This document shows positions 3 through 45,752 of a stretch of DNA of 60,346 nt, in pieces. Made by a program: the position numbers and the translations under genes. The notes below the pieces were generated by a model, which did no database searches, was not told the DNA's origin, and saw only the letters and a list, made by a program, of their open reading frames with translations. Origin of the DNA: a bacterium. Lineage in GTDB: Bacteria; Cyanobacteriota; Vampirovibrionia; LMEP-6097. The stretch lies in contig JBJTTW010000066.1 of NCBI GenBank assembly GCA_046080385.1, forward strand, positions 1 through 60,346. The letters run 5' to 3'. Position 1 is the stretch's first letter. Each line of letters opens with the position of its first letter.

Positions 3-38
3 CACATAGTATTTTTTCTTACGAAAAAATACTATGTG
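3..38. other. Perfect 15-bp inverted repeat (hairpin) at window edge
   Basis: cacatagtatttttt (3-17) pairs with aaaaaatactatgtg (24-38), with 6-nt loop cttacg. It lies just upstream of the methyltransferase remnant. Confidence 0.5.
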
Positions 39-70
39 TCAATAATCTGTGATAAAAATATTAGTTGTAG

Positions 71-256
71 TTAAAAAATTCCCTTCTACTTTTCTCAATT
101 ATTGGTTTAATTTTTCAGTCCACTTTAGAAGAGATAGCTAAATTAAAACCTAAAAGAGTAGTTTTTTATGATGAGGTTTTTAAGGATGATGTCGTGAAGC
201 TTAATGCAGAGCAGACTTTAAGGAAGTTTGGGGTGGAGGATATTAGGGTTATATGA
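71..256 (+). pseudogene. C-terminal remnant of a DNA methyltransferase (type III mod-like)
   Basis: The frame ending at TGA 254-256 reads ...STLEEIAKLKPKRVVFYDEVFKDDVVKLNAEQTLRKFGVEDIRVI*. This resembles the conserved C-terminal tail of type III/N6-adenine Mod proteins. The frame is closed by stops at 50-70 and has no start codon. Its stop overlaps the next ATG (ATGA). Confidence 0.4.
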
Positions 257-1440
257 GTGATCTAATTGAGCGAGAAGATTATCATAGCTTGCTTCTTGAA
301 TTAAAATCTAAAATTCATCAGTCACAATTCAGAGCAAGCTTAGCTGTTAATAAGGAGCTCATATTACTTTACTGGCAAATCGGTAATTCTATACTGGTAC
401 AGCAAGAAAAAGAAGGCTGGGGTTCCAAGATTATAGAGCAATTAGCTAAAGATCTGAAGAGTGAATTTCCACTAATGAAGGGCTTTTCAGTGCGTAATCT
501 TAAGGAAGTGATGAAAAATGAAATTTTTCATCACGGACTGTCAGGTCAAGAGGTTAAGGATCCGCTCCCCGAGCTAGGTTTTATACCTCGGTCGGGGTCG
601 AAAAATGCTAAAAATAGCATTTTTCAGCGGATCCTTAAGTATATGCGTAGCTTTGCTGAAAATTATAGAGATTTAGAATTTGTGCAAGTGGTTCTTGCAC
701 AAATCACTTGGTACCATAACATAACTCTTTTAGATAAAGTAAAAGACAGCACCGAAAGAAATTTCTATATTCAAGAAAGTATTAAAAATGGCTGGTCTCG
801 TAATGTGATGGTACATCAAATAGAATCTAATCTTTACAAAAGACAGATTCAGACAGAAAAAGTACATAATTTTCAAGAAACATTAAGTAAGCCACAATCT
901 GATTTAGCACAGGAGATACTTAAAGATCCTTATAACTTTGATTTTCTCTCTTTAGGAGAAGAGATTAAAGAAAAAGACTTAGAAAGTGCTTTAGTAAAGC
1001 ATATTACAAAGTTCTTGTTAGAGCTAGGAGCAGGTTTTGCTTTTATAGGAAAACAGTATCACCTAGAAGTTGCAGGGCAGGATTTTTATATAGACCTACT
1101 TTTCTACCATATTAAACTACGTGCTTATGTAGTCATTGAGCTTAAGGCTGGAGATTTTAAGCCAGAGTACGCTGGGAAATTGAACTTCTATCTCTCCGCA
1201 GTAGATAAAATTTTAAAAAGTGATGATGATAAACCATCTATTGGTATTATTCTCTGTAAATCTAAGAGTAAGATCATCGCCGAATATGCACTAAGAGACA
1301 TTACTAAGCCGATAGGAGTTTCTGAATATATGCTTACAGAATCTATTCCAGAAAATTTCAAGGGGGAATTGCCGAGTATTGAGGATTTAGAAAAAAGTCT
1401 TAGTGATTATCAGATAATTACTAAAGAACAGGACGAATAA
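253..1440 (+). CDS. DUF1016 / YhcG-family PD-(D/E)XK nuclease-like protein carrying a 45-aa repeat-derived insertion
   Basis: N-terminal ...GWGSKIIEQLAKDLKSEFPLMKGFSVRNLK...YMRSFAENY... and C-terminal nuclease core IDLLFYHIKLRAYVVIELKAGDFKPEYAGKLNFY. The insertion lies between RNLK and YMRSF. Confidence 0.85.
   Translation: MSDLIEREDYHSLLLELKSKIHQSQFRASLAVNKELILLYWQIGNSILVQQEKEGWGSKIIEQLAKDLKSEFPLMKGFSVRNLKEVMKNEIFHHGLSGQEVKDPLPELGFIPRSGSKNAKNSIFQRILKYMRSFAENYRDLEFVQVVLAQITWYHNITLLDKVKDSTERNFYIQESIKNGWSRNVMVHQIESNLYKRQIQTEKVHNFQETLSKPQSDLAQEILKDPYNFDFLSLGEEIKEKDLESALVKHITKFLLELGAGFAFIGKQYHLEVAGQDFYIDLLFYHIKLRAYVVIELKAGDFKPEYAGKLNFYLSAVDKILKSDDDKPSIGIILCKSKSKIIAEYALRDITKPIGVSEYMLTESIPENFKGELPSIEDLEKSLSDYQIITKEQDE
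499..639 (+). mobile_element. CTTAAG-bounded 141-bp nested-palindrome element, copy 1 (in frame inside the DUF1016 CDS)
   Basis: Near-identical to the reverse complement of 40145-40286 and 42655-42796. It is flanked by cttaag at both ends. Internal hairpins are gtgatgaaaaat/atttttcatcac and gaaaaatgct/agcatttttc. The 135 bp between the duplicated CTTAAG equals 45 codons. Confidence 0.85.
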
Positions 1441-1443
1441 CTA

Positions 1444-1464
1444 GAGGATGTTAGGGTTATATAA
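1444..1464 (+). repeat. 21-bp direct repeat of the mod 3' end (partner at 236-256)
   Basis: gaggatgttagggttatataa versus gaggatattagggttatatga (19/21 identical). The two copies bracket the DUF1016 gene. Confidence 0.7.
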
Positions 1465-1471
1465 ATAAGGT

Positions 1472-2695
1472 GTGATTATGGAAGAACTAGAGTTATTAAA
1501 ACTACTATCTCTAGGAGAAGATAGTAGAAGGCAATTTAAAAAAAATATTCATAATATTGATTCCCTTGCTGCTGAGATGGTGGCCTTTAGTAATAGCAGT
1601 GGTGGACAGATATTCATTGGTGTATCTGATGATGGCAGTATAGATGAGGGACTTAGTCGAGAAGATATTAGTAGGCTAAATGAAATGCTTTCTAATGCTG
1701 CAAGTCAAAAAGTAATCCCACCGATTAATCCAGAGAATCAAGTAATCACAATTAACGATAAATTAGTAATGGTAGTAAATATTCAAGAAGGAATTAATAA
1801 ACCTTACCAAGACAGCAGTTCTCATTTTTGGGTTAAGAGTGGAGCTGATAAACGAAAACTTACAGCAAGAGAAGAATTACAGAGGATATTTCAAAGCTCA
1901 AATTTAATACACGCTGATGAAATACTAGCTAAGGGTCTAAGTATTACTGATTTGGACATGGAATATTTTCAGCAGTTTTTCCAAAAACGTTACGGAGAAA
2001 GTCTTTATGAAGCTGAATCTGGAGTCGCAAAATGTGGCGAAACTCACTTGGGATATTCAACTGATGCTTTGAACAAGCTCTTATCTAATTTAAATCTCGC
2101 TAAAGATGGACAATTAAATTTAGCAGCGGCTTTATTATTCACAAAAAATCCTTCTAATTATTTACCTGCTTTTATAGTTAAAGCAGCAGCTTTTCCTAGC
2201 CTAGAACTCACTACTGAAACATATTTAGATAGCCGTGATATTACAGGGAAACTATCAGATATTTTTCAGCAGACACTTAGTTTTATTCTTATAAATATTC
2301 ACCACATACAAGGAGACCAAGGTATTAATAGTATTGGTATCCCAGAAATACCACGTATAGTTTTAGAAGAGCTGATAGCAAATGCTTTAATTCATAGGGA
2401 TTATTTTATTTCTGCACCAGTAAGGGTCTTTATTTTTCTGGATCGAGTGGAGATCATTAGTCCAGGGCATCTGCCGAATAACCTTACTGTAGAAAATATT
2501 AAAGCAGGTAACTCTAATATACGAAACCCAGTCTTAGCTTCATTTGCGAATCATATTTTACCTTATAGGGGATTTGGATCTGGTATTTTAAGAGCTCTGC
2601 AAAATCACCCTCATATTGACTTCGAGGACGATAGAGCAGCGAATCTATTTAAGGCTATCATTTATAGACCAAGCTATGAGAGTGTATCATGCTAA
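1472..2695 (+). CDS. AlbA_2 (Schlafen-like) DNA-binding domain plus HATPase_c_4 protein ('RecG-like' putative regulator)
   Basis: N-terminal ESRRQFKK...AEMVAFSNSSGGQIFIGVSDDGSI and C-terminal EELIANALIHRDYF...VEIISPGHLPNNLTVENIKAGNSNIRNPVLA. Start is GTG 1472 or ATG 1478. The 3' end overlaps res by 7 nt. Confidence 0.8.
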   Translation: MIMEELELLKLLSLGEDSRRQFKKNIHNIDSLAAEMVAFSNSSGGQIFIGVSDDGSIDEGLSREDISRLNEMLSNAASQKVIPPINPENQVITINDKLVMVVNIQEGINKPYQDSSSHFWVKSGADKRKLTAREELQRIFQSSNLIHADEILAKGLSITDLDMEYFQQFFQKRYGESLYEAESGVAKCGETHLGYSTDALNKLLSNLNLAKDGQLNLAAALLFTKNPSNYLPAFIVKAAAFPSLELTTETYLDSRDITGKLSDIFQQTLSFILINIHHIQGDQGINSIGIPEIPRIVLEELIANALIHRDYFISAPVRVFIFLDRVEIISPGHLPNNLTVENIKAGNSNIRNPVLASFANHILPYRGFGSGILRALQNHPHIDFEDDRAANLFKAIIYRPSYESVSC

Positions 2696-5661
2696 AACTC
2701 AAATTTGATGCCAATCAAGCATATCAGCAGGAAGCTATAAGCTCTATAGTAGATATTTTCGAGGGGCAGGCATCTGTGCAATCGAGATTTACAGCCCTAG
2801 AGAGAGATAGAGGTATAGTTGGGAAAATAACAGAACTAGGTTACGCTAATAAATTAGATCTTATCGATGAAGATCTGATGAAAAATTTAATTAAAATTCA
2901 GGATCGCAATGGACTGAAACGTTCTAAGAGTCTAAAAGATATAGAATATGGAGTGCCAAACTTCGCTATAGAGATGGAAACTGGTACTGGTAAGACTTAT
3001 GTTTACAGCAGAACTATCATGGAGCTTAATGCTAGATATGGTTTTACTAAATTTATAATAGTAGTGCCGAGTGTCGCTATTAGAGAAGGTGTTTATAAAT
3101 CTTTACAAATCACAGAAGAGCATTTTAGGGAATTATACACAGGGAGAGCTTTTCATTATTTTATTTATAATTCTTCTCGTCTTAATGAAGTAAGAACCTT
3201 CGCTACTAGTGACGCTATAGAAATAATGATTATTAATATAGACGCTTTTCGTAAGGGCTTTGAGGAAGGTAAAGATAAGGCTGCGACTGTAATTCATAAC
3301 CCTTCAGATAAGCTAGAAGGACGTAAGCCTATAGAATTTATTCAGCAGACTAATCCTATAGTCATAATAGATGAACCTCAGTCTGTAGATGCTACTCCTA
3401 AAGCAAAGGAAGCTATTAAAGCCTTAAATCCACTCTGTATTTTAAGATACTCTGCTACTCACAGGGAGACTTATAATTTAATGTATAAACTAGGTGCTGT
3501 AGAGGCTTTTGAGAAAAATTTAGTTAAAAAAATAGAAGTGCTATCTATTGATAATGGAAGTTCTAATTCATCACGTATTAAACTTCTAAGTGTTTCGGAG
3601 AAATCGGGCTCTTACTCAGCTACAGTCATGCTGAACTGCATAGATAAAAAAGGTACTCATAAGTTTAAAGAGGTCTCTGTAAACACTAATAAGCGAAGCA
3701 GTCTCTATGTTGTTTCTGGGGAAAATGATGAGTATAAAGATCTTAATGTCAGCAATATCTGTGCTCAAACAGATAAAGAATACATAGAAATAAATCAGAC
3801 TGAAATTATAAAGATCGGACAGGCAGAAGATGATTTAGTAAGTAAAAGAGCTCAGATCCGCTGGACTATAGAAAGCCATTTAGATAGAGAGGCGATTCTG
3901 CTAGAGCAGGGTATTAAAGTACTATCTCTGTTTTTTATAGATAAAGTTCATAACTACAGGGAATCAGCAGACACTCAGAAAGGTATTTATGCCGAGATCT
4001 TTGAGGAAGAATATCTAAATCTAATTAAACTACCTAAATATAATCAGCTTTTCGCTAAAGAAGAATTTAAAAGCTATGCTCTGAATCCTCGTGTAGATGA
4101 GGTTCATGCAGGGTATTTCGCCCAAGATAATAAAGGTACTTATAAAGACACTAATGGAAATACTAAACCTGACGAAACCGCTTATGAATTGATTATGAAG
4201 AATAAGGAGAGACTCTTAAGCTTTGATACACCACTTAGGTTTATTTTCTCCCATTCGACTTTAAAAGAAGGCTGGGATAATCCTAATGTCTTTCAGATCT
4301 GTACTCTAGTAGAGAATCAGGATCTTATGACTAAGCGTCAGAAAATCGGTAGGGGCTTGCGTTTACCAGTGAATCAGGCTGGTGAAAGGGTTCTGGATGA
4401 AAATGTTAATATACTAACTATAGTCGCAAATGAAAGTTATGATAGTTTCGCCGAAAATTTACAGCGTGAAATAGAGAAAGATACGAATATTAAATTCGGA
4501 GTTATTACAGAAAGGTTATTTGAAACGATTCGTATACAGAGAGAAGGAGAGCATACAGAGTTAGGCTATGAAGCTTCTCTAAGAATTTATAACTATTTAA
4601 AATTAGAAAAACTAATTGATAAAAATGGTAAACCTAGCTCAGAACTCAAAGAAGCCTTAGTGATGGAATCTTTAACTTTGCCAGAAGAGTTTTTAGAAAT
4701 TAAAAAAGAAATTATCAGTACTATAGTGCAGACTCAGAAGCGTTTACCAATACTCAATAGAGCAGATAAAGTGAAATTAGAGCTTAATAAACAGGTTTAT
4801 TTAAGTCCAGATTTTATTGAGCTTTGGGAACGTATTAAATATAAAACTGTTTATAGAATTGATTTTAGCAGTGACGAACTAATAGAAAGCTGCACTAAGG
4901 CGATAGCAAGAATGCCAGAAATAAAAACCAATCCAGTAATAGGAAGATGGGTTAAGCTGCAAATAGATAAAAAGGGAATTTCGGCTAGCGATCCTTTACG
5001 CATTAGGACTTTGATTCGGGAAGAGTATGAGGATAAACGTTTACCAGATATATTAAAATACGTGGAAACTTATACTAGGCTTAAAAAGAGTTCTATTGCA
5101 GAAATTTTAATTAGATCTAAAACTCTTGATGCTTTTTACTCAAACCCTCAAGAGTACATGGAAAGAGTGGTAGAGGCTATTAATGCAGAAAAACGCAAGA
5201 TAGTCGTTAATGGTATTAAATATGAAAAAATAGGTGCTCACGAATTCTACCAGCAAGAACTATTTGATGATAAAGAGCTAATAGGGTATCTGAAAAACAA
5301 TGCCATTCCTGTATCTAAAAATGTTTACTCTCATGTACTTTATGATTCTGGAGTAGAAAAGCTTTGGGCAGAAAGGTTGAATAATGATCCAGATGTGAAA
5401 TTATTCACTAAACTACCGCGCTGGTTTAAAATTGAAACGCCACTTGGTGACTATCATCCCGATTGGATGATTTTATTAGATAAAAATTCAGAAGAAAAAC
5501 TTTATTTCGTAATTGAGACTAAAGGCTCCATTAAAGATGAAGATTTAAGATATCTAGAGGATAAAAAGATTCAGTGTGGTGAAAAGCATTTCGAAGCTTT
5601 AGGTACTGGAGTGAGTTTTACCAAGGCTGACGATTATAATACTTGGCGAGCTGGGGTTTAA
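2689..5661 (+). CDS. res: Type III restriction endonuclease, Res subunit (SF2 helicase plus C-terminal PD-(D/E)XK)
   Basis: Motif I METGTGKTYVY, motif II IIDEPQS, LRYSATH, FIFSHSTLKEGWDNPNVFQICTL and QKIGRGLRLPV. C-terminal nuclease motif HPDWMILLD...YFVIETKG. Confidence 0.9.
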   Translation: MLKLKFDANQAYQQEAISSIVDIFEGQASVQSRFTALERDRGIVGKITELGYANKLDLIDEDLMKNLIKIQDRNGLKRSKSLKDIEYGVPNFAIEMETGTGKTYVYSRTIMELNARYGFTKFIIVVPSVAIREGVYKSLQITEEHFRELYTGRAFHYFIYNSSRLNEVRTFATSDAIEIMIINIDAFRKGFEEGKDKAATVIHNPSDKLEGRKPIEFIQQTNPIVIIDEPQSVDATPKAKEAIKALNPLCILRYSATHRETYNLMYKLGAVEAFEKNLVKKIEVLSIDNGSSNSSRIKLLSVSEKSGSYSATVMLNCIDKKGTHKFKEVSVNTNKRSSLYVVSGENDEYKDLNVSNICAQTDKEYIEINQTEIIKIGQAEDDLVSKRAQIRWTIESHLDREAILLEQGIKVLSLFFIDKVHNYRESADTQKGIYAEIFEEEYLNLIKLPKYNQLFAKEEFKSYALNPRVDEVHAGYFAQDNKGTYKDTNGNTKPDETAYELIMKNKERLLSFDTPLRFIFSHSTLKEGWDNPNVFQICTLVENQDLMTKRQKIGRGLRLPVNQAGERVLDENVNILTIVANESYDSFAENLQREIEKDTNIKFGVITERLFETIRIQREGEHTELGYEASLRIYNYLKLEKLIDKNGKPSSELKEALVMESLTLPEEFLEIKKEIISTIVQTQKRLPILNRADKVKLELNKQVYLSPDFIELWERIKYKTVYRIDFSSDELIESCTKAIARMPEIKTNPVIGRWVKLQIDKKGISASDPLRIRTLIREEYEDKRLPDILKYVETYTRLKKSSIAEILIRSKTLDAFYSNPQEYMERVVEAINAEKRKIVVNGIKYEKIGAHEFYQQELFDDKELIGYLKNNAIPVSKNVYSHVLYDSGVEKLWAERLNNDPDVKLFTKLPRWFKIETPLGDYHPDWMILLDKNSEEKLYFVIETKGSIKDEDLRYLEDKKIQCGEKHFEALGTGVSFTKADDYNTWRAGV

Positions 5662-11712: not shown

Positions 11713-11796
11713 GGAGATTTTTTAAATCAGTTAAAAGACACTTGCTTAAGCTAGCTTATCTCTATAGTTATTTTAGCTGTAATATGCAGTTTATCG

Positions 11797-12190
11797 TTAA
11801 AGCTCATCGCACACACCCCGAAGGAACGTAAAAAAACGATTTTAGAGTATCGTTTTTTTACCAGTGGATTCTCACTGACACCCTACATAAAACAGAGAAG
11901 ATTTAACAGAGAGGGTTTAGGGGAGACGCCAACAAAGAACCTTAAAAGCTCATCGCGCACACCCCGAAGGAACGTAAAAAAACGATTTTAGAGTATCGTT
12001 TTTTTACCAGTGGATTCTCACTGACACCCTACATACAAACAAAAAAGATTTAACAGAGAGGGTTTAGGGGAGACGCCAACAAAGAACCTTAAAAGCTCAT
12101 CGCACACACCCCGAAGGAACGTAAAAAAACGATTTTAGAGTATCGTTTTTTTACCAGTGGATTCTCACTGACACCCTACATAAAACAAAA
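11797..12190. repeat. Tandem repeat, 146-bp unit x ~2.7
   Basis: Units start at ~11797, ~11943 and ~12089 (agctcatcgc at 11801, 11947, 12093). Each holds a 13-bp perfect hairpin gtaaaaaaacgat-N8-atcgtttttttac. On the minus strand each has a cc-UUCG-gg tetraloop motif (ccttcgggg). Confidence 0.9.
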
Positions 12191-23747: not shown

Positions 23748-23970
23748 GAGACCACTGCACAACGTGCAGTTTCAAGGCTGAGGAGGACGAATGACCGCAG
23801 TGTACTCAAGGTACATGATACCATTCTGGAAAATTCTTTTGAGTCCAAGCAGTCCGAAACTAGGACTGCGCAAGGGACATATAAAAGTCTTTTTCAGATT
23901 AAAATGGTATTTTGGTATGAGGATCATGAGGAGGACGAAAACGCAGAAAATGGAGTTGTGCAGTAGTCTC
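23748..23970 (+). mobile_element. Family-1 (NAEIG element) long variant, ~223 bp, with terminal inverted repeats
   Basis: Left end gagaccactgcacaac and right end gttgtgcagtagtctc (15/16 as inverted repeat). ctcaggaag occurs on both flanks (23740-23748 and 23968-23976). Contains modules C (gtttcaaggctgaggaggacgaatgaccgcagtg), B (tgaggatcatgaggagga) and A (cgaaaacgcagaaaatggag). Confidence 0.8.
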
Positions 23971-25867
23971 AGGAAGTGTATTCTGCATTAATCTTCACAT
24001 AGTCATAACTTAAATCATTCCCAAGAAAATGTGAAGAATTTAGAACCTCGTCTGCAAGCGATGGCGTGGTCTCTTTATTGTTAACAGTTAATTGACTTTT
24101 ATTTAAACCAATAGTTATCTCTACGTGCCTTGCCTGTTTCAATCGCTTAGCGAGTTTATCTAAATCCTCTCCGAAAAGCTGTGCAGAAGCATTTTTAAAA
24201 ACACAGCTATCCAATAGATTTACTTCAATTAAGCTCATGTCTAAGCCTTCTAGCAGAGCTTCTTCCCGTGCGAAAGCTGCAACGATACGTCCCCAATTCG
24301 GGTCATTACCAAAGATAGCAGTTTTAACTAACATCGAATTGATAATATTTTTGCCAATTTTTTGAAGATTTAATGGACTGATGGGTAAATGTTCTAGCTT
24401 TAAGTCTATGATTTTAGTTAAACCTTCACCATCTGCAATAATTTGATAACAGAGTCCTTTGCAGACCTCTTCAAGAGATGATTTGAATTCTTCTCGGCTA
24501 ATTTCTTCCCCGCTAAAATTATTTAAGAGGAGAACCATGTCATTAGTACTAGTATCACCATCTACACTAATGTTATTAAAAGTAGCATTGACGATTTCAC
24601 TTAGAGTCTCTTGCATAAATTTCGTAGCTTTTTCATTATTCAGCCCAGAGATTTTTAGATCCGTAATAATAAAACCAAGCATAGTTGCCATATTCGGAGC
24701 TATCATCCCAGAGCCTTTACAGATGCCAAGAAATCGCTGTTTCTTATCCTGACTGATTTTCGGGGCGGTATCTGTGGTCATAATCGCTCTAGCGAAATCA
24801 TAGACAGCTTCATAGGATTCAGAATTTCTCTTTTCTTCTATTTTTTCGGTGAAAACTTTTTTAGCGTGACTGAGGTCAAGTTTGCGTCCTATAACCCCTG
24901 TACTTGCCGACAGCACCTTTGGACACTGCTCCCAGACTCCAATTTCATCGTTTTCGTCGTCCTCATGATCCTCATGTACCCGCAGTACACTGCGGTCATT
25001 CGTCCTCCTTAGCCTTGAACTTGCGCGCCTATGAGCAGCGTCTTGTGTGGACTGCTCCCAGGCTCCAATTTCAGAGCTATTTGCAATAAAATTTTCAAGC
25101 AGTTTCCTCAAATCGTTATCGGCTTTAATCCCATCTTCTCCAGTGCAGCAGTTAGCATTACCAGAATTCGCGATAAGACCATAGACGGTTTTAGATTTTA
25201 ATTTTATGTTCTGCTCTATGCATATAGCTTTCATCGCATTAGTCGTAAAGGTACCAGCCCATGAACATGGTTTCTCTGAAAATAAAACTGCCATATCCAA
25301 GTTATTCGTTTTAGATGCAGCTTTAATTCCCGAATGAAAACCCGTCAGAGAAAAGTATTTAGGCAGCGACGGTATATAGGCTTTAGCTAAAAGGGTGTAG
25401 CCTTCTGCACCGTAGTAAAGCGCTAGAGGCATTAAGGCGTAACTGTAAGCCTGTACGCCTTGTGAAATTAGTAAGGCTTTTTCTTCTTCAGAGGGTACTT
25501 CACCATCGGCAAGAGCAGCCACTTTAATCCCTAGGCACTGTTGCGGAACTCCAATTTCTGCGTTTTCGTCGTCCTCATGATCCTCATGCACACCTAGTGC
25601 ACTGCGGTCATTCGTCCTCCTCAGCCTTGAACTTGTTCGTTCGGCAGCAGTGCCCTCTAAAGACTGTTGCGGAACTCCAATTTCCGCGTTTTCGTTGTTA
25701 AGCTGGGATTTATACAATTCAGTAACAGGGATAAAACCTATATTTCTAGGACTAGAGCCTGTTAAATTAAGATGATCTATAATCCAGAGTTCTTTTCCGG
25801 CTAGCTCTTCTGTAAGTGGAATTACAGGAATAAAAAGTTCTTTGATTTTCATCTTTCCATGAGCCAT
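23969..25867 (-). CDS. argJ: Glutamate N-acetyltransferase / amino-acid acetyltransferase ArgJ, enlarged (632 aa) by repeat insertions and an extra N-terminal region
   Basis: GFHSGIKAA...FTTN, STGVIGRKL, autoprocessing site PNMATMLGFIITD, GDTSTNDMV, NDPNWGRI and C-terminus YVKINAEYTS*. An alternative start at Met146 (ATG 25430-25432) is possible. Confidence 0.85.
   Translation of the reverse strand: MAHGKMKIKELFIPVIPLTEELAGKELWIIDHLNLTGSSPRNIGFIPVTELYKSQLNNENAEIGVPQQSLEGTAAERTSSRLRRTNDRSALGVHEDHEDDENAEIGVPQQCLGIKVAALADGEVPSEEEKALLISQGVQAYSYALMPLALYYGAEGYTLLAKAYIPSLPKYFSLTGFHSGIKAASKTNNLDMAVLFSEKPCSWAGTFTTNAMKAICIEQNIKLKSKTVYGLIANSGNANCCTGEDGIKADNDLRKLLENFIANSSEIGAWEQSTQDAAHRRASSRLRRTNDRSVLRVHEDHEDDENDEIGVWEQCPKVLSASTGVIGRKLDLSHAKKVFTEKIEEKRNSESYEAVYDFARAIMTTDTAPKISQDKKQRFLGICKGSGMIAPNMATMLGFIITDLKISGLNNEKATKFMQETLSEIVNATFNNISVDGDTSTNDMVLLLNNFSGEEISREEFKSSLEEVCKGLCYQIIADGEGLTKIIDLKLEHLPISPLNLQKIGKNIINSMLVKTAIFGNDPNWGRIVAAFAREEALLEGLDMSLIEVNLLDSCVFKNASAQLFGEDLDKLAKRLKQARHVEITIGLNKSQLTVNNKETTPSLADEVLNSSHFLGNDLSYDYVKINAEYTS
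24921..25074 (-). mobile_element. Family-1 composite insertion in the argJ core domain (full element plus adjacent solo left end)
   Basis: ggacactgctcccagactccaatttcatcgttttcgtcgtcctcatgatcctcatg...cattcgtcctccttagccttgaacttg..., then ggactgctcccaggctccaatttc. Translated as SEIGAWEQSTQDAAHRRASSRLRRTNDRSVLRVHEDHEDDENDEIGVWEQC. Confidence 0.85.
25534..25693 (-). mobile_element. Family-1 composite insertion in the argJ 5' region (full ~122-bp element plus adjacent solo left end)
   Basis: TIRs ggcactgttgcggaac (25534-25549) and gttcggcagcagtgcc (~25639-25654). The solo copy actgttgcggaactccaatttccgcgttttcg is at 25662-25693. Translated as ENAEIGVPQQSLEGTAAERTSSRLRRTNDRSALGVHEDHEDDENAEIGVPQQC. 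Confidence 0.85.
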
Positions 25868-40144: not shown

Positions 40145-40286
40145 CTTAAGGATCCGCTGAAAAATGCTGTTTTTAGCATTTTTCGACCCCGACCGAGGTA
40201 TAAAACCTAGCTCGGGGGAGCGGATTCTTAACTTCTTCACCTGACAGTCCGTGATGAAAAATGAAATTTTTCATCACTTCCTTAAG
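40145..40286 (-). mobile_element. CTTAAG-bounded nested-palindrome element, copy 2 (intergenic queA/adk)
   Basis: cttaaggatccgctgaaaaatgctgtttttagcatttttcgaccccgaccgaggtataaaacctagctcgggggagcggattcttaac...gtgatgaaaaatgaaatttttcatcacttccttaag. A partial inverted extra copy of the first hairpin lies at ~40290-40322. Confidence 0.85.
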
Positions 40287-40328
40287 CATTCGCTAAAAAA
40301 TGCTCAAAATAGCATTTTCATTATTTCC

Positions 40329-41528
40329 TTAAAGTAAAAGACAGCAGTCACCATAACTAAAGAATCGATATTTTTCTTCGACGGCTATCTGGTAAAGGGT
40401 TTTACATTCTTCTGTGCCGATTAATGCACTGACTAATAGTAGTAAAGTGGACTTAGGCAAATGGAAATTAGTTAAAAGTCCATCTATAATTTTAAATTTA
40501 AAATTCCCAGGATAAATATATAAATCAGTCTCACCACGCAGCTTACCAGTAATAGCTATGCTTTCAAGACAGCGTAAGCTAGTAGTGCCGATAGCGATTA
40601 TTCTTTGACCACGAGTTTTAGCGGTTTGAATTTTATCCCAGTTTTCAGAGCTAATTTCATAAGATTCAAAATGCATTTTATGGTCTTTCACTTCGCTTAC
40701 ACTGACAGGTTTAAAGGTCCCGATTCCCACATCTAGATTTAAGTCTATAAATTCAACTCCTTTCCTTGTAAGTGCTTGAATGATTTCTTCGCTAAAATGT
40801 AGCCCAGCAGTAGGTGCGGCAATACTGCTGCCGAGAGAATCCTGCTTAGAATAAACTGTCTGATAGCGTTCCTTATCGCTGTCTTCAGCACTCCTTTGCA
40901 GATAAGGTGGTATTGGCATAGTGCCGTGATTAGTAATTATGTTTAGAAATTGCTCATAGCCTTTGAATTCGACTATCATCATCCCATCTTCATTTGAAGA
41001 CCGCTGCACAAGTCCATTGTGGGCATGCAGCCGAACTCCAATTTCTGCGTTCTCTTTAAAAATAATTATTTCTTCTGAGGAACCACTTATGATATAGGAT
41101 TTAGGAGTGTTTTTGATTTTCTTTCCTGGCTTAGCTAGAGCTATCCAGCGATATCTTTTATCATGACGCTGCTCGCAAGCTCCAATTTCTGCGTTTCCGC
41201 CCGCCTCATGATCCAGAAATTCCTTAACTAAAAGTATTTCAATGGCTTTGTTTTCAGGCTTCTCTTTATCTATAACAAAAAATCTTGCCGCTAGCACTCT
41301 AGTGACATTCCTCACTAAAATATCCCCAGCTTTTAAGATAGAGCATATATCTTTAAAGGATTTATGTTCAATATTTTTATTAAGTTCTTGCAAAATAGTA
41401 TCTTTGAGATTTGGTGCTTCCTGAATTTCTCGCTTATAATAGAGCAAGCGAGAATTATCCCTTTTATCTAGTGGATACTTAGCGACTAATTCCTCTGGTA
41501 GCTCAAAATCAAAATCGTCAATTAACAT
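40329..41528 (-). CDS. queA: S-adenosylmethionine:tRNA ribosyltransferase-isomerase, with two repeat insertions
   Basis: FDFELPEELVAKYPLDKRDNSRLL, YQTVYSK...AAPTAGLHF, AIGTTSLR and RFFSYGDCCLL. Confidence 0.95.
   Translation of the reverse strand: MLIDDFDFELPEELVAKYPLDKRDNSRLLYYKREIQEAPNLKDTILQELNKNIEHKSFKDICSILKAGDILVRNVTRVLAARFFVIDKEKPENKAIEILLVKEFLDHEAGGNAEIGACEQRHDKRYRWIALAKPGKKIKNTPKSYIISGSSEEIIIFKENAEIGVRLHAHNGLVQRSSNEDGMMIVEFKGYEQFLNIITNHGTMPIPPYLQRSAEDSDKERYQTVYSKQDSLGSSIAAPTAGLHFSEEIIQALTRKGVEFIDLNLDVGIGTFKPVSVSEVKDHKMHFESYEISSENWDKIQTAKTRGQRIIAIGTTSLRCLESIAITGKLRGETDLYIYPGNFKFKIIDGLLTNFHLPKSTLLLLVSALIGTEECKTLYQIAVEEKYRFFSYGDCCLLL
41031..41064 (-). repeat. Family-1 solo left end, in frame in queA
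   Basis: gggcatgcagccgaactccaatttctgcgttctc, translated ENAEIGVRLHAH. Confidence 0.8.
41165..41214 (-). repeat. Family-1 left end plus partial module B, in frame in queA
   Basis: gacgctgctcgcaagctccaatttctgcgtttccgcccgcctcatgatcc, translated DHEAGGNAEIGACEQRH. Confidence 0.8.
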
Positions 41529-42654: not shown

Positions 42655-42796
42655 CTTTAAGGATCCACTGAAAAATGCTGTTTTTAGCATTTTTCGACCC
42701 CGACCGAGGTATAAAACCTAGCTCGGGGAGTGGATCCTTAATCTCTTTACCTGACAGTCCGTGATGAAAAATTTCATTTTTTATCACTTCCTTAAA
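42655..42796 (-). mobile_element. CTTAAG-bounded nested-palindrome element, copy 3 (fills the gap between the convergent GT2 and nagZ-like genes)
   Basis: Near-identical to copy 2. Begins 5 nt after the GT2 stop. The nagZ-like stop codon (42792-42794) lies in the element terminus. Confidence 0.85.
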
Positions 42797-44420
42797 GTTC
42801 TGTTTGATCAGCTTGAAAAACTTTTAAGAGTGCTTTATAGTGTACGAAATTTGCACCATCTAGATTAATATCAGCGATTTCACTATCAAAATCACATTCA
42901 ACATGAATAGTATTAGGGAAGTCTTTTTTAAAATCTAGAATAAGAGACTCCTGCACAACTCCATTTTCTGCGTTTTCAATAAAGTTTTCTGGCTGTGGAT
43001 CGCTCTGACATTGAAAACTTAGTATTAAATATTTTAAAGACCTCTTTGAGCTTGCGGTTAATTCTTTATCCGAGCTTAATATCAGATCACTCAGGGATTT
43101 AGTTTCTCGTGAGAATTGTAGCAACTTGGCTTCTGGAAACACTTTCCTGATAATTTCAAGCTCTAATTTAGGGTGTTCAAAAACCAAAATATAATCAGGT
43201 CTAAATGGTAGGGAACTGGATAACTCTGCACCTAAGCCATTTTGAGCTTTATGATTTATTTGAATACTGTCTTGAACTATGTTTGACATCTCTTGTATTA
43301 ATTTTTCTCTGTAGCTATGGTCTAAAGTGTGTTTTACAGTACTGTTTCTATTTAAACTAAAATCCTGTTGCCTTTTCAGTGTTTTTTTATCCTTTAGTCG
43401 ATCTTTAGTTAGTTTAATTTTTTCTATGGAATTTTCGATACGCTCACGCAGAGATTTACTAAAATGGCAGGTAGGACTAGATCTTTCTATCTCTAAGGCT
43501 TCGTCTAGATTAGTGTTCCAGATAATTAAATCATTGCCAGCTTTTATCATTAACTCACAGATTCTTTTATAATCCCCAAATTCACTCAGAGCTTTCATTG
43601 TGATCTCATCAGTCACACACAATCCTTTAAACTTAAGTTCTTGCTGGAGAAGACCTTCTACGAAAAAAGGATTAATACTTGCTGGTAGTTTTTCTAGTAT
43701 TTCCTGCGTAGGTTTATTATTAAAACCACTATTCAAAAGCTTTTCTTGAATATTTGCTGGAAGCTTATAAATAGCGTGGGCCGTCATGACCATATCTATT
43801 TCAGAGTTTATCGCTGCACGAAAAGGCTGAAGATGATCATTAAAGAATAATTCTTTGCTTAAATCTATATGGGGTAAAGAGTGATGAGAATCTTTGATTG
43901 AGTCACCATGTCCAGGAAAGTGTTTGGCACAGTTAAGTAGGGGATATTTTTTTAATTCATTTATAATAACAGTAGCCTGCTCAGAGACTAGTTTAGAATC
44001 GTTCCCAAGGCTTCTTGTACCGATAATGGGATTCAGAGGGTTAGTATTTAAATCTAAGCAGGGAGCGAAAACTAGATTAAAGCCCAAATCAATTAATTCA
44101 GAAGCAAAGAGCTGAGTGTGTGCTTTTAAATAGTCTGGATTCTTTCTGCTAGCAGTACCTAGGGCATAGAGACTTGGCAAACTTGCTGAAACTTTTCTAA
44201 GGCGCTCTACTTTGCCACCTTCTTGGTCGACACTAATTAAAATATCTTCGCCTAATAAATCTTTTAAATCGGTAATGAGTTTTTTTAACTGAGCGGCTTC
44301 TTCTATATTTGTATCAAAGAGAATTAATCCAGCTGGCTTTAGCTCTAAAAGTTTAGCTGCGGTTTCTTTGTCTAAAGTGTCTCCCTTAAAGCCACAGATG
44401 AAGAGATTGCTGAGTTGCAT
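42792..44420 (-). CDS. nagZ: GH3 beta-N-acetylhexosaminidase (NagZ-like) with ~200-aa C-terminal extension
   Basis: GLILFDTNI, VDQEGGKVERL and KHFPGHGDSIKDSHHSLP. The C-terminal region is unassigned and contains a family-1 insertion. Confidence 0.8.
   Translation of the reverse strand: MQLSNLFICGFKGDTLDKETAAKLLELKPAGLILFDTNIEEAAQLKKLITDLKDLLGEDILISVDQEGGKVERLRKVSASLPSLYALGTASRKNPDYLKAHTQLFASELIDLGFNLVFAPCLDLNTNPLNPIIGTRSLGNDSKLVSEQATVIINELKKYPLLNCAKHFPGHGDSIKDSHHSLPHIDLSKELFFNDHLQPFRAAINSEIDMVMTAHAIYKLPANIQEKLLNSGFNNKPTQEILEKLPASINPFFVEGLLQQELKFKGLCVTDEITMKALSEFGDYKRICELMIKAGNDLIIWNTNLDEALEIERSSPTCHFSKSLRERIENSIEKIKLTKDRLKDKKTLKRQQDFSLNRNSTVKHTLDHSYREKLIQEMSNIVQDSIQINHKAQNGLGAELSSSLPFRPDYILVFEHPKLELEIIRKVFPEAKLLQFSRETKSLSDLILSSDKELTASSKRSLKYLILSFQCQSDPQPENFIENAENGVVQESLILDFKKDFPNTIHVECDFDSEIADINLDGANFVHYKALLKVFQADQTEL
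42944..42977 (-). repeat. Family-1 solo left end, in frame in the nagZ-like C-terminal extension
   Basis: gagactcctgcacaactccattttctgcgttttc, translated ENAENGVVQESL. Confidence 0.75.
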
Positions 44421-44426
44421 AATGCT

Positions 44427-44564
44427 TTAATTATCTCATGGATATTTTATTATCTGAGTTTTAAAGTATCTAATTTATTGGATATTTTAAGAATAACATT
44501 ATAAAATACCTAATATATTAGATATTTTATAATCTAGTGGGTATAATATCTAATATATTGGATA
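44427..44564. promoter_or_regulatory. Four HipB-type operator-like sites phased at exactly 40 bp
   Basis: TATCTAATTTATTGGATA (44467-44484), TACCTAATATATTAGATA (44507-44524), TATCTAATATATTGGATA (44547-44564), and a degenerate site with a conserved GGATA half at 44427-44444. TATAAT lies at 44543-44548, overlapping the last site. Confidence 0.6.
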
Positions 44565-44570
44565 TTACAG

Positions 44571-45752
44571 ATGGCTAATTCTAATTGGGCGAAAGTCTAT
44601 TTAAATAATGATTTTGTTGGTTACTTAGAGGAACAAGCAGGTGGAAGAACTTGTTTTACTTACGATGAGAGTTTTATACAAAGCAGTAATAATCCAGTAT
44701 CGGTAACATTACCTTTAAATATAAATAAGCATTATTCTGAAAATGGCTTACATCCTTTTTTTGATAATCTTGTCGCAGAGGGATGGCTTGCCCAGATTCA
44801 AGCTAAAGCCTTAGGTATTCGTGAGAATGATAGATTCAAACTGTTAATGGCTTTTGGTCATGATTTAATCGGAGCTGTGACGGTAGTTGATCCAGATCCA
44901 CAGTATCAGATCCACCTTGATAAAAATGATTATGTAAAAAAAATAGCTGTAAAATCTAAAGCTTCTATGTCTGGTGTGCAGCCTAAAATATTAGTAACTT
45001 TAGGGGAGAATGGTTTCGTACCTGTCAATTTAGGAGAGACTTCTACGTATATCGCTAAGCTGAAAGGTAAGTATCCATTAATTTTAGAGAATGAATATCT
45101 TTGCATGAAAGTAGCTGAAATCTTACTGAAGCCTGATGAAGTTGCGGAAACCCAGCTTGCGAAAATAGAAGGCATTGGCGATGCATTGTTGGTGAAACGC
45201 TTTGATAGACTTGAAAACAAGGCTAAAGTACATTTTGAAGAATTTGCTTCGCTGCTACAAATGAAGGCTATAGATAAATATGATTTAAACTATAAAGATT
45301 TAGCTGATTACATGAATAACAGTGAACTATGTAATAAAGTTGACGTTGAAAAGCTCTTTAGAAGAGTTTTGGCTTGTATACTTTTAGGGAATACCGACGC
45401 ACATTTGAAAAATTTTGCTATGTTACATAATGCTGCTGGTCTAAAGTTAAGCCCTCTATATGATATGGTTTTTGTCAGGTATTATGAAGAATTGACTCCT
45501 AATTTAGCTTTGGGATTTAATTCTAAGCTTGATTTACCCTTAGGCGATATTAAAGCTAAGCATTTAAAGATACTGTGTGCAGACTTTAAGTTACGTGAAG
45601 CAGTTTTAGAACAGGCGGTAAAAGATTTTTCCTCTAGGTTAGATCACATTTATGATTTTATAGAAGCTTCTAAAAAAGTAAACCCTTTACTGAGAAAAGC
45701 TTTCAGAGAACATATTAAAAAAAGATGGAACGGCATATTCAAAAATATTTAA
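44571..45752 (+). CDS. hipA: HipA-family Ser/Thr kinase toxin
   Basis: N-terminal HipA_N-like segment (VYLNNDFVGYLEE...FTYDESF...PFFDNLVAEGW), SGVQPKILV and catalytic loop ILLGNTDAHLKNFAML. Confidence 0.85.
   Translation: MANSNWAKVYLNNDFVGYLEEQAGGRTCFTYDESFIQSSNNPVSVTLPLNINKHYSENGLHPFFDNLVAEGWLAQIQAKALGIRENDRFKLLMAFGHDLIGAVTVVDPDPQYQIHLDKNDYVKKIAVKSKASMSGVQPKILVTLGENGFVPVNLGETSTYIAKLKGKYPLILENEYLCMKVAEILLKPDEVAETQLAKIEGIGDALLVKRFDRLENKAKVHFEEFASLLQMKAIDKYDLNYKDLADYMNNSELCNKVDVEKLFRRVLACILLGNTDAHLKNFAMLHNAAGLKLSPLYDMVFVRYYEELTPNLALGFNSKLDLPLGDIKAKHLKILCADFKLREAVLEQAVKDFSSRLDHIYDFIEASKKVNPLLRKAFREHIKKRWNGIFKNI

Follow-up and report, generated by a model that had tools for sequence, protein, structure and literature searches.

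What are 45 extra codons doing in the middle of an otherwise conserved nuclease gene? The gene, yhcG, lies at the left end of a stretch of 60,346 nucleotides (the window: positions 1 to 60,346 of contig JBJTTW010000066.1, with coordinates given on the forward strand) from a non-photosynthetic relative of the Vampirovibrionia, a lineage placed within Cyanobacteriota. A preliminary description of this DNA, made from its sequence alone, proposed that a palindromic element had inserted cleanly and in frame into the gene, duplicating its target, and that the element is constrained to be translatable. Empty sites in close relatives bear out the clean 45-codon insertion with a duplicated target; the proposed constraint is unsupported. 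We assign a probability of roughly 0.85 to the reading that the feature represents a single copy of a DNA transposon that is young, non-autonomous and targets TTAA (MITE, for miniature inverted-repeat transposable element), which is read through by survivorship, and in which the hairpins, not the peptide, are maintained.

The host open reading frame (ORF) matches DUF1016_N (PF17761) and YhcG_C (PF06250), with the PF17761 match split at profile position 64/65. The 45 inserted residues sit between ...GFSVRNLK and YMRSFAENY, and their columns are empty in all 114 aligned homologues, in agreement with the insertion point first proposed (between the family motifs GFSxRNLK and YMRxFAExY). Relatives of 350 residues, from Vampirovibrionia metagenome-assembled genomes (MAGs) and lake metagenomes, are 97% identical to the window protein apart from a single 45-residue gap. 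At the DNA level, six orthologous yhcG loci (L001-L006), from strains 97% identical, lack the element and carry one TTAA. The empty site in these relatives contains ...AATCTTAAGTATATG... (within ...GTGCGTAATCTTAAGTATATGCG...), where the window reads ...AATCTTAAG, followed by 135 bp (GAAGTG...GGATCCTTAAG) and then TATATG..., an exact 135-bp gain that corresponds to a 131-bp body plus a 4-bp TTAA, or 45 codons.

Insertion can be followed at two further sites. Near-identical copies had been reported at 499-639 (+), 40145-40286 (-) and 42655-42796 (-), and these are recovered both in an alignment of the three (column identity 91%, flanks included) and in a repeat search, which pairs them as inverted repeats I1-I3 (139 nt at 96%; 73/79 nt at 99%/89%); a mini derivative brings the window total to four copies. 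The orthologous regions of copies 2 and 3 were reached through relatives of QueA. At copy 3, the empty GAATT-TTAA-AGAG is replaced by GAACT-TTAA-(131 bp)-TTAA-AGAG, the longer context being GAATTTTAAAGAG in L021-L023 and GAACTTTAA...TTAAAGAG in the window. The copy 2 site is the T-TAA stop of queA, at which two inserts (the 43-bp mini and the full copy) lie in tandem, with a TTAA after each. All three window copies correspond to one TTAA in relatives and have two around the element, and across 14 copies the bases directly outside the TTAA vary and the TTAA is nearly constant. Because the empty sites carry a single TTAA and the outer bases vary, the target duplication is the 4-bp TTAA. CTTAAG had been described as the duplicated unit; it arises at copies 1 and 2 because the bases flanking the TTAA happen to match the element-terminal G/C.

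These copies show the features by which MITEs are recognized: small size (<~400 bp) with no transposase gene (the sole open frame of the 131-bp body gives a 45-residue peptide), terminal inverted repeats (GGAAGTGATGAAAAATG vs. GGATCCGCTGAAAAATG, 13/17, retained in the mini forms), target-site duplications relative to empty sites at three loci, and multiple dispersed, homogeneous copies (4 within the window, those at 11 metagenome loci, and 13 or more others in the source MAG).

Within the body (GGAAGTG...GCGGATCC), the imperfect terminal inverted repeats accompany four nested hairpins (Table 1). A single-strand fold gives the left hairpin, then an outer stem around two more hairpins; as RNA, its energy is -66.8 kcal/mol, compared with -31.5 +/- 3.5 for shuffled sequences (z = -10; 0 of 200 shuffles equally stable). 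The hairpin sub-patterns are confined to element copies in the window and do not occur in 100 shuffles, which, with the fold, substantiates the stacked hairpins originally described. When an 11-copy alignment is tested for covariation against the four-helix structure, 96.7% of cells pair, and five pairs carry compensatory changes on both sides, a number reached by 0 of 500 shuffles (slid controls yield 0-1); this signal is weaker on a 14-row alignment. The hairpin loops also invert: the left loop is GAA or TTC in otherwise near-identical copies (copy 3 of the window, win3, vs. L012), and for the right loop L057 and the mini copy of the window have the inverted form. Loop inversions (GAA/TTC; AAAAAC/ATTTTA) are found at window positions 508-534, 40251-40277 and 42761-42787, and in alignment A6 at columns 22-24 and 115-118. 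Such flip-flop in near-identical copies argues that hairpins (or cruciforms) extrude in vivo, and the compensatory changes likewise suggest that hairpins form in vivo, as DNA or RNA. It is the hairpins, rather than the peptide, that compensatory changes keep, and they may matter either for propagation of the element (through transposition or an RNA role) or for repair internal to the palindromes.

Table 1. Positions of the element, its parts and its host gene in the window.
Feature	Position	Strand	Basis and remarks
Host gene yhcG: YhcG/DUF1016 PD-(D/E)xK nuclease-family protein, 395 aa (350 aa in relatives)	253..1440	+	Pfam, homologues, gene neighbourhoods
Left TTAA of target-site duplication, copy 1	500..503	+	Single TTAA at L001-L006 empty site; TTAA at both ends of nearly all copies, adjacent bases variable
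Copy 1 body, 131 bp, GGAAGTGATG...CAGCGGATCC, inside yhcG	504..634	+	Sequence, alignment, empty-site comparison
Right TTAA of duplication, copy 1	635..638	+	Sequence and empty-site comparison
Left terminal inverted repeat GGAAGTGATGAAAAATG	504..520	+	13/17 bases match the right end reverse-complemented, GGATCCGCTGAAAAATG
Right terminal inverted repeat CATTTTTCAGCGGATCC	618..634	+	Read directly; termini kept in mini derivatives
Left hairpin GTGATGAAAAAT-GAA-ATTTTTCATCAC	508..534	+	Loop GAA or TTC among copies; compensatory T-A to C-G in L018
Outer stem TTAAGGATCCGCT / AGCGGATCCTTAA	554..638 (554-566 pairs with 626-638)	+	Encloses central and right hairpins; 3 pairs with compensatory double changes
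Central G+C-rich hairpin CCCCGAGCTAGG-loop-CCTCGGTCGGGG	567..597	+	Most conserved part, invariant in 14 copies; compensatory T-A to C-G in L057
Right hairpin GAAAAATGCTA-loop-TAGCATTTTTC	600..625	+	Fold and pattern search
Copy 2: TTAA + 132-bp body + TTAA	40146..40285	-	Intergenic, queA/adk; +1 C frameshift; relatives' empty site CTTTAAGAAGTATTTCGC
Mini derivative: 43-bp body + TTAA, tandem with copy 2	40286..40332 (body 40286-40328)	-	Final TTAA 40329-40332 includes queA TAA stop
Copy 3: TTAA + 131-bp body + TTAA	42657..42795	-	Intergenic; TTAA 42792-42795 includes stop of glycoside-hydrolase gene 42792..44420 (-)

The mini form (43-44 bp) consists of both termini and the right hairpin loop only, and corresponds to a deletion between two GAAAAATG direct repeats. 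TTAA-flanked minis are present in the window (40286-40328), on L010 (2382-2434) and in a Caenarcaniphilales reference MAG (L043, ~2393-2415); those of the window and L010 have a common C-to-T change, creating a TAG in the otherwise open frame, from which it follows that dispersal extends to the mini form. L016 at first suggested an independent inner module of 84 bp (TTAAGGATCC...GGATCCTTAA), but this reading was rejected, as L016 is a full copy with a nested insertion of another repeat family.

A further property of the ends bears on annotation. The left end, GGAAGTGATGAAAAATG, also resembles a Shine-Dalgarno sequence and ATG, and gene callers start the element ORF there; the resulting tiny ORFs begin with MKNEIFHH, their ATG lying in the left hairpin, and run on into the flanks. 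This accounts for a set of at least 13 ‘hypothetical proteins’ annotated by PGAP in the source MAG (locus tags ACKO3R_...; P0160-P0173), which are 41-76 residues long, start MKNEIFHHGLSG... and differ in their C-termini; they are spurious, element-derived artefacts. The element peptide has no match in Pfam or NCBIfam, a consensus scan for terminator or promoter function returned nothing in the element, and a scan of the whole window with Rfam 15 detected four tRNAs only, the element having no match at the gathering threshold.

How, then, does such an element come to lie in frame within a gene? A second intragenic copy, on L010, lies in a gene for an MqnE/CofH-like radical-SAM protein, in the same frame and orientation as the copy in yhcG, to which the L010 copy is 100% identical over 139 nt. 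Within the window, 714 of 798 TTAA sites (89%) are inside ORFs, whereas, of the ~14 copies whose context is known, only those in YhcG and the MqnE-like protein lie inside genes, each in the one orientation and phase that can be read through. This discrepancy points to selection acting after insertion and not to a ‘designed’ element. A transposase whose gene lies elsewhere in the genome would presumably mobilise the element in trans. One of the six reading frames happens to be stop-free and, given the 135-bp length, ~1/6 of intragenic insertions leave the host ORF intact; these insertions, together with intergenic ones, would alone survive selection. At two intergenic insertion sites in the window the target is a TTAA containing the TAA stop of the upstream gene and, because duplication of the TTAA regenerates the T-TAA stop, such sites are neutral landing pads; many intergenic copies sit at TTAAs of this kind. 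Frame compatibility, then, looks like survivorship. The yhcG copy would be one such survivor, and a very recent one, since another copy matches it at 100% and strains of 97% identity lack it.

The preliminary description called the element tolerated in frame; for YhcG, the frame is intact, but tolerance is unproven, as the insertion, between N82-L-K and Y130-M-R-x-F, splits the most conserved motif of the N-terminal domain (invariant residues around it are G77, F78, S79, N82, L128, Y130, M131, R132 and F134), and the structural models are of low confidence. YhcG has no PDB relative by sequence. Two AlphaFold2 runs, on 14 and 115 sequences, gave a mean predicted local distance difference test score (pLDDT) of 48 and 60; in these low-confidence models the flanks score 70-90 and the insert 23-33, with helices extended on both sides (H80-92, H117-137). 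The insert in the MqnE-like protein falls in a stretch that is unalignable to, and longer than, the corresponding stretch of PDB 6xi9, and this site is more plausibly permissive than that in YhcG. In relatives, the genes on either side of yhcG belong to a type III restriction-modification locus, with mod upstream and res downstream; across window positions 253-5661 and L001-L006 it is flanked by mod (N6_N4_Mtase) and res (ResIII and RE_endonuc). Strains differ in whether they have a Schlafen/AlbA_2-HATPase_c_4 gene (window 1472-2695).

The family is young, of low-to-moderate copy number, and narrowly distributed, being confined to a few Caenarcaniphilales/Vampirovibrionia genomes among those searched. 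An exact 27-nt core has no match in 185,579 reference genomes, and a 22-nt core is found on 11 contigs in JGI metagenomes, from a single project. One of them, L012, shares the window's left end (window 6-131) at 99% identity, which shows that the JGI contigs include the same population; this contig (positions 201-359 and 1746-1872) has another full copy ~1.4 kb beyond the window start. A degenerate terminal pattern matched 42 loci in the reference genomes, ~37 of them by chance; the real matches include a full, TTAA-flanked copy, 90.6% identical (L057), in Cyanobacteria bacterium REEB446 and, in MAGs of Caenarcaniphilales type, one mini and one partial copy. No copy was found in ~100 kb of orthologous DNA from 88-97%-identical relatives, and viral contigs held no real copies. 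Two contigs of the same strain from Logan SRR29270179 (L007, 2401 nt; L008, 2915 nt) stop exactly where copies 2 and 3 lie; short-read assemblies of these genomes are broken by the element.

Several points weigh against a MITE of this kind. Its terminal repeats are imperfect (13/17), and no autonomous element or transposase with matching ends, including a related insertion sequence (IS), was detected in Pfam scans of the window, in the fetched loci (among them the surroundings of the partial copy L045), or in terminal-pattern scans of reference genomes and viral contigs. The evidence comes from ~25 copies and covers a minor part of the source MAG. Moreover, with a palindromic target at both ends, a 4-bp duplication is indistinguishable from a 2-bp TA duplication within TTAA, and single-strand cleavage after TTAA at both ends is equally compatible.

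The last of these leads to one alternative, in which the element would move as single-stranded DNA, as a palindrome-associated element, by means of a Y1 (IS200/IS605-type) or similar hairpin-recognising enzyme, TTAA being the cleavage or target tetranucleotide with no true duplication. We regard this as improbable, although it fits the strong subterminal hairpins near both ends, pairing maintained by compensatory changes, loops in both orientations that show hairpin extrusion in vivo, and the lack of a DDE transposase in the Pfam scans of the window. IS200/IS605 elements have left and right ends that differ, and a target that is strand-asymmetric; the palindrome-associated elements derived from them have subterminal hairpins, lack terminal inverted repeats and a duplication, and insert strand-specifically 3' of a tetra- or pentanucleotide. 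Hairpins are common to both, but in the window element the inverted repeats include the very termini, the minis keep exactly these termini, a typical trait of DDE-type MITEs, and a TTAA stands on either side, although the palindromic target leaves some ambiguity; in addition, none of the fetched loci contains a tnpA or tnpB gene.

A second alternative, which corresponds to the translatability proposed at the outset, is that the element is under selection to stay open, as a ‘protein-insertable’ module in the manner of the Rickettsia palindromic elements (see below), shaped for life inside genes. As had been reported, the frame that is open in copy 1 is also open in intergenic copy 3, and it runs through 9 of 11 full copies without interruption, the 90.6%-identical L057 copy among them. 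The diverged peptide relatives P0174 and P0175 are open as well, the inserted length is a multiple of three (as it is for the 44+4 bp mini form), and both intragenic copies use this frame. However, copies 1 and 3 have just a single open frame out of six, and 15% of 20,000 composition-matched, TTAA-flanked shuffles have one or more. Frameshifting indels interrupt the other two of the 11 full copies (win2, which is copy 2 with its additional C, and L011), a further copy (L016) contains an insertion nested within it, and in the minis this frame includes a TAG. Peptide-level matches are biased, because only open copies are called as ORFs. Among 44 unique substitutions in the 11 full copies, 7 are synonymous in the open frame, 35 are non-synonymous and 2 score as ‘stops’, both of which are artefacts of a multi-base loop inversion taken base by base. 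The synonymous share (16%) does not exceed the random expectation (22%), which argues that the peptide is not under purifying selection; stops are expected at 4%, so that ~40 substitutions would create only ~1.6 of them in any case. The recurrent changes are those that alter the peptide while preserving base-pairing. Since the copies are young (90-100% identity), their youth explains the open frame in intergenic copies. Selection for translatability is likewise improbable.

That the 45 residues are a native segment of YhcG, or an intein or intron removed after transcription, is suggested by the intact ORF and the in-frame position but has next to no probability, given that the segment is missing from all 114 homologues and the six otherwise 97%-identical loci (which refutes the native reading), that the same 139 nt recur in another, unrelated gene as well as between genes, that no Rfam intron family matches, and that 45 residues without a Pfam or NCBIfam match are far below intein size.

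If the element is a TTAA-targeting MITE, its closest known counterparts include the Rickettsia palindromic elements (RPEs). As summarized in PMC10969869 and PMC3184786, which cite Ogata et al. (2000), RPEs comprised 44 insertions, nearly half of them in ORFs; according to the same summaries, they are palindromic, dispersed and ~105-150 bp long, encode a conserved peptide of ~35-50 residues in frame inside unrelated protein genes, also occur as intergenic copies, and form more than one family per genome. The window element shares these traits, among them the in-frame presence in otherwise conserved protein genes (YhcG and the MqnE-like radical-SAM protein). In contrast to RPEs, it has clear TTAA duplications and demonstrable recent mobility, a smaller intragenic fraction (2 of ~14 copies), and an insertion in a conserved helix motif of YhcG that is not obviously a permissive loop. 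It has no sequence relationship to RPEs, and its host belongs to the Caenarcaniphilales/Vampirovibrionia rather than to Rickettsia. NCBIfam includes models of RPE domains; neither the peptide nor the host protein has an NCBIfam match at E<=1, and membership in the Rickettsia RPEs was rejected on this ground and on that of the host lineage.

Bacterial MITEs that insert in frame within genes have been amply documented, including ERIC/IRU, YPAL/RU-2, Coxiella QMITE1/2, pneumococcal BOX and Anabaena MITEb/e (PMC3184786, PMC5896051, PMC10969869). Like the window element, these are non-autonomous, with inverted-repeat termini, strong hairpins and short direct repeats at the insertion site, and they occasionally form in-frame fusions with, or C-terminal extensions of, host ORFs and give rise to spuriously annotated small ORFs; the window element differs in sequence family, in its fixed TTAA target and nested four-hairpin architecture, and in its very low copy divergence and narrow host range. 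Nezha, a cyanobacterial MITE (Zhou et al. 2008, as cited in PMC3184786), resembles it in length (130-170 bp), in having both terminal and subterminal inverted repeats, in recent transposition seen from close genomes and, in a broad sense, in phylum. An autonomous partner has been proposed for Nezha in that account, whereas no IS partner was identified here, and the two were compared by description rather than sequence.

Other mobile elements share the target. Eukaryotic piggyBac targets TTAA, and bacterial IS5-group elements make 4-bp YTAR duplications; the window element shares the 4-bp TTAA duplication, and its ends begin with GG, like many IS5-family ends, but the CCC...GGG ends of piggyBac do not match. 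Nor does it resemble REP/BIME sequences (single imperfect palindromes of 20-40 bp with GTAG/CGTC heads and a RAYT gene): it has a body of 131 bp, four hairpins and ends of the form GG...CC, and Pfam scans of the window found no RAYT-like gene. In literature searches, fragments of the element sequence matched cloning primers only, and no paper on repeats in Melainabacteria/Vampirovibrionia was found. The family appears to be undescribed so far, although the phenomenon of in-frame intragenic MITEs is already known. The description that suits it best is that of a new MITE family, restricted to the Caenarcaniphilales/Vampirovibrionia lineage, whose intragenic habit is like that of the RPEs.

The same genome contains a second, unrelated repeat family that inserts in frame, as the preliminary description had also claimed; it is found in queA and argJ. 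With the core GAAAACGCAGAAATTGGAGT and the peptide ENAEIGV..., this family lies in frame inside housekeeping genes, at window positions 41021-41065 and 41165-41209 (queA) and 23969-25867 (argJ, with 149-nt units at 24924-25072 and 25536-25684), at many other window sites (repeat families D1/D3/D4/D6), and at L045 6320-6874, in the lgt homologue of a related MAG. Owing to this family, QueA is 383, 391, 399 or 425 residues long in close strains, and ArgJ is 632 residues long with a split Pfam match. At L016 1419-1472 (window 23865-23918, 100% identical; peptides P0170 and P0173), it is nested in the left half of a copy of the TTAA element, from which we infer that the two families insert into each other.

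Two other repeats were observed in the window. Three tandem 147-nt units (73-97% identical; 11744-12183), each with the palindrome GTAAAAAAACGATTTTAGAGTATCGTTTTTTTAC, separate a large DUF748/AsmA-like gene from a tRNA-Ser gene. A 98-nt AT-rich overlapping palindrome (44467-44564) lies directly upstream of the gene for a hipA-like toxin (44571..45752), after which comes a helix-turn-helix gene; this palindrome may be an operator region.

Taken together, the two in-frame families raise a broader possibility, which we consider doubtful: that this lineage repeatedly fixes at least two unrelated mobile repeats in frame (in yhcG and mqnE-like; in queA, argJ and lgt) as an independent, free-living counterpart of the RPEs, the TTAA element having perhaps been filtered for a Shine-Dalgarno sequence with ATG, a stop-free frame and a length divisible by three, and so persisting in coding DNA and seeding peptides. 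If it were true that the lineage tolerates insertions in several essential genes, it would provide a test of whether the RPE phenomenon needs an intracellular lifestyle.

The element is also a source of annotation errors, both in the spurious PGAP proteins and in a 395-residue ‘YhcG’ set apart from its orthologues by a transposon. One way for proteins to gain new segments is the in-frame insertion of MITEs, and the yhcG copy, for which strains of 97% identity provide both a filled and an empty allele, is a clean, datable case beyond the classic Rickettsia system. The visible maintenance of hairpin pairing and loop flip-flop is a useful feature of this case, and the frequent coincidence of the TTAA target with T-TAA stops provides a simple explanation for neutral landing sites.

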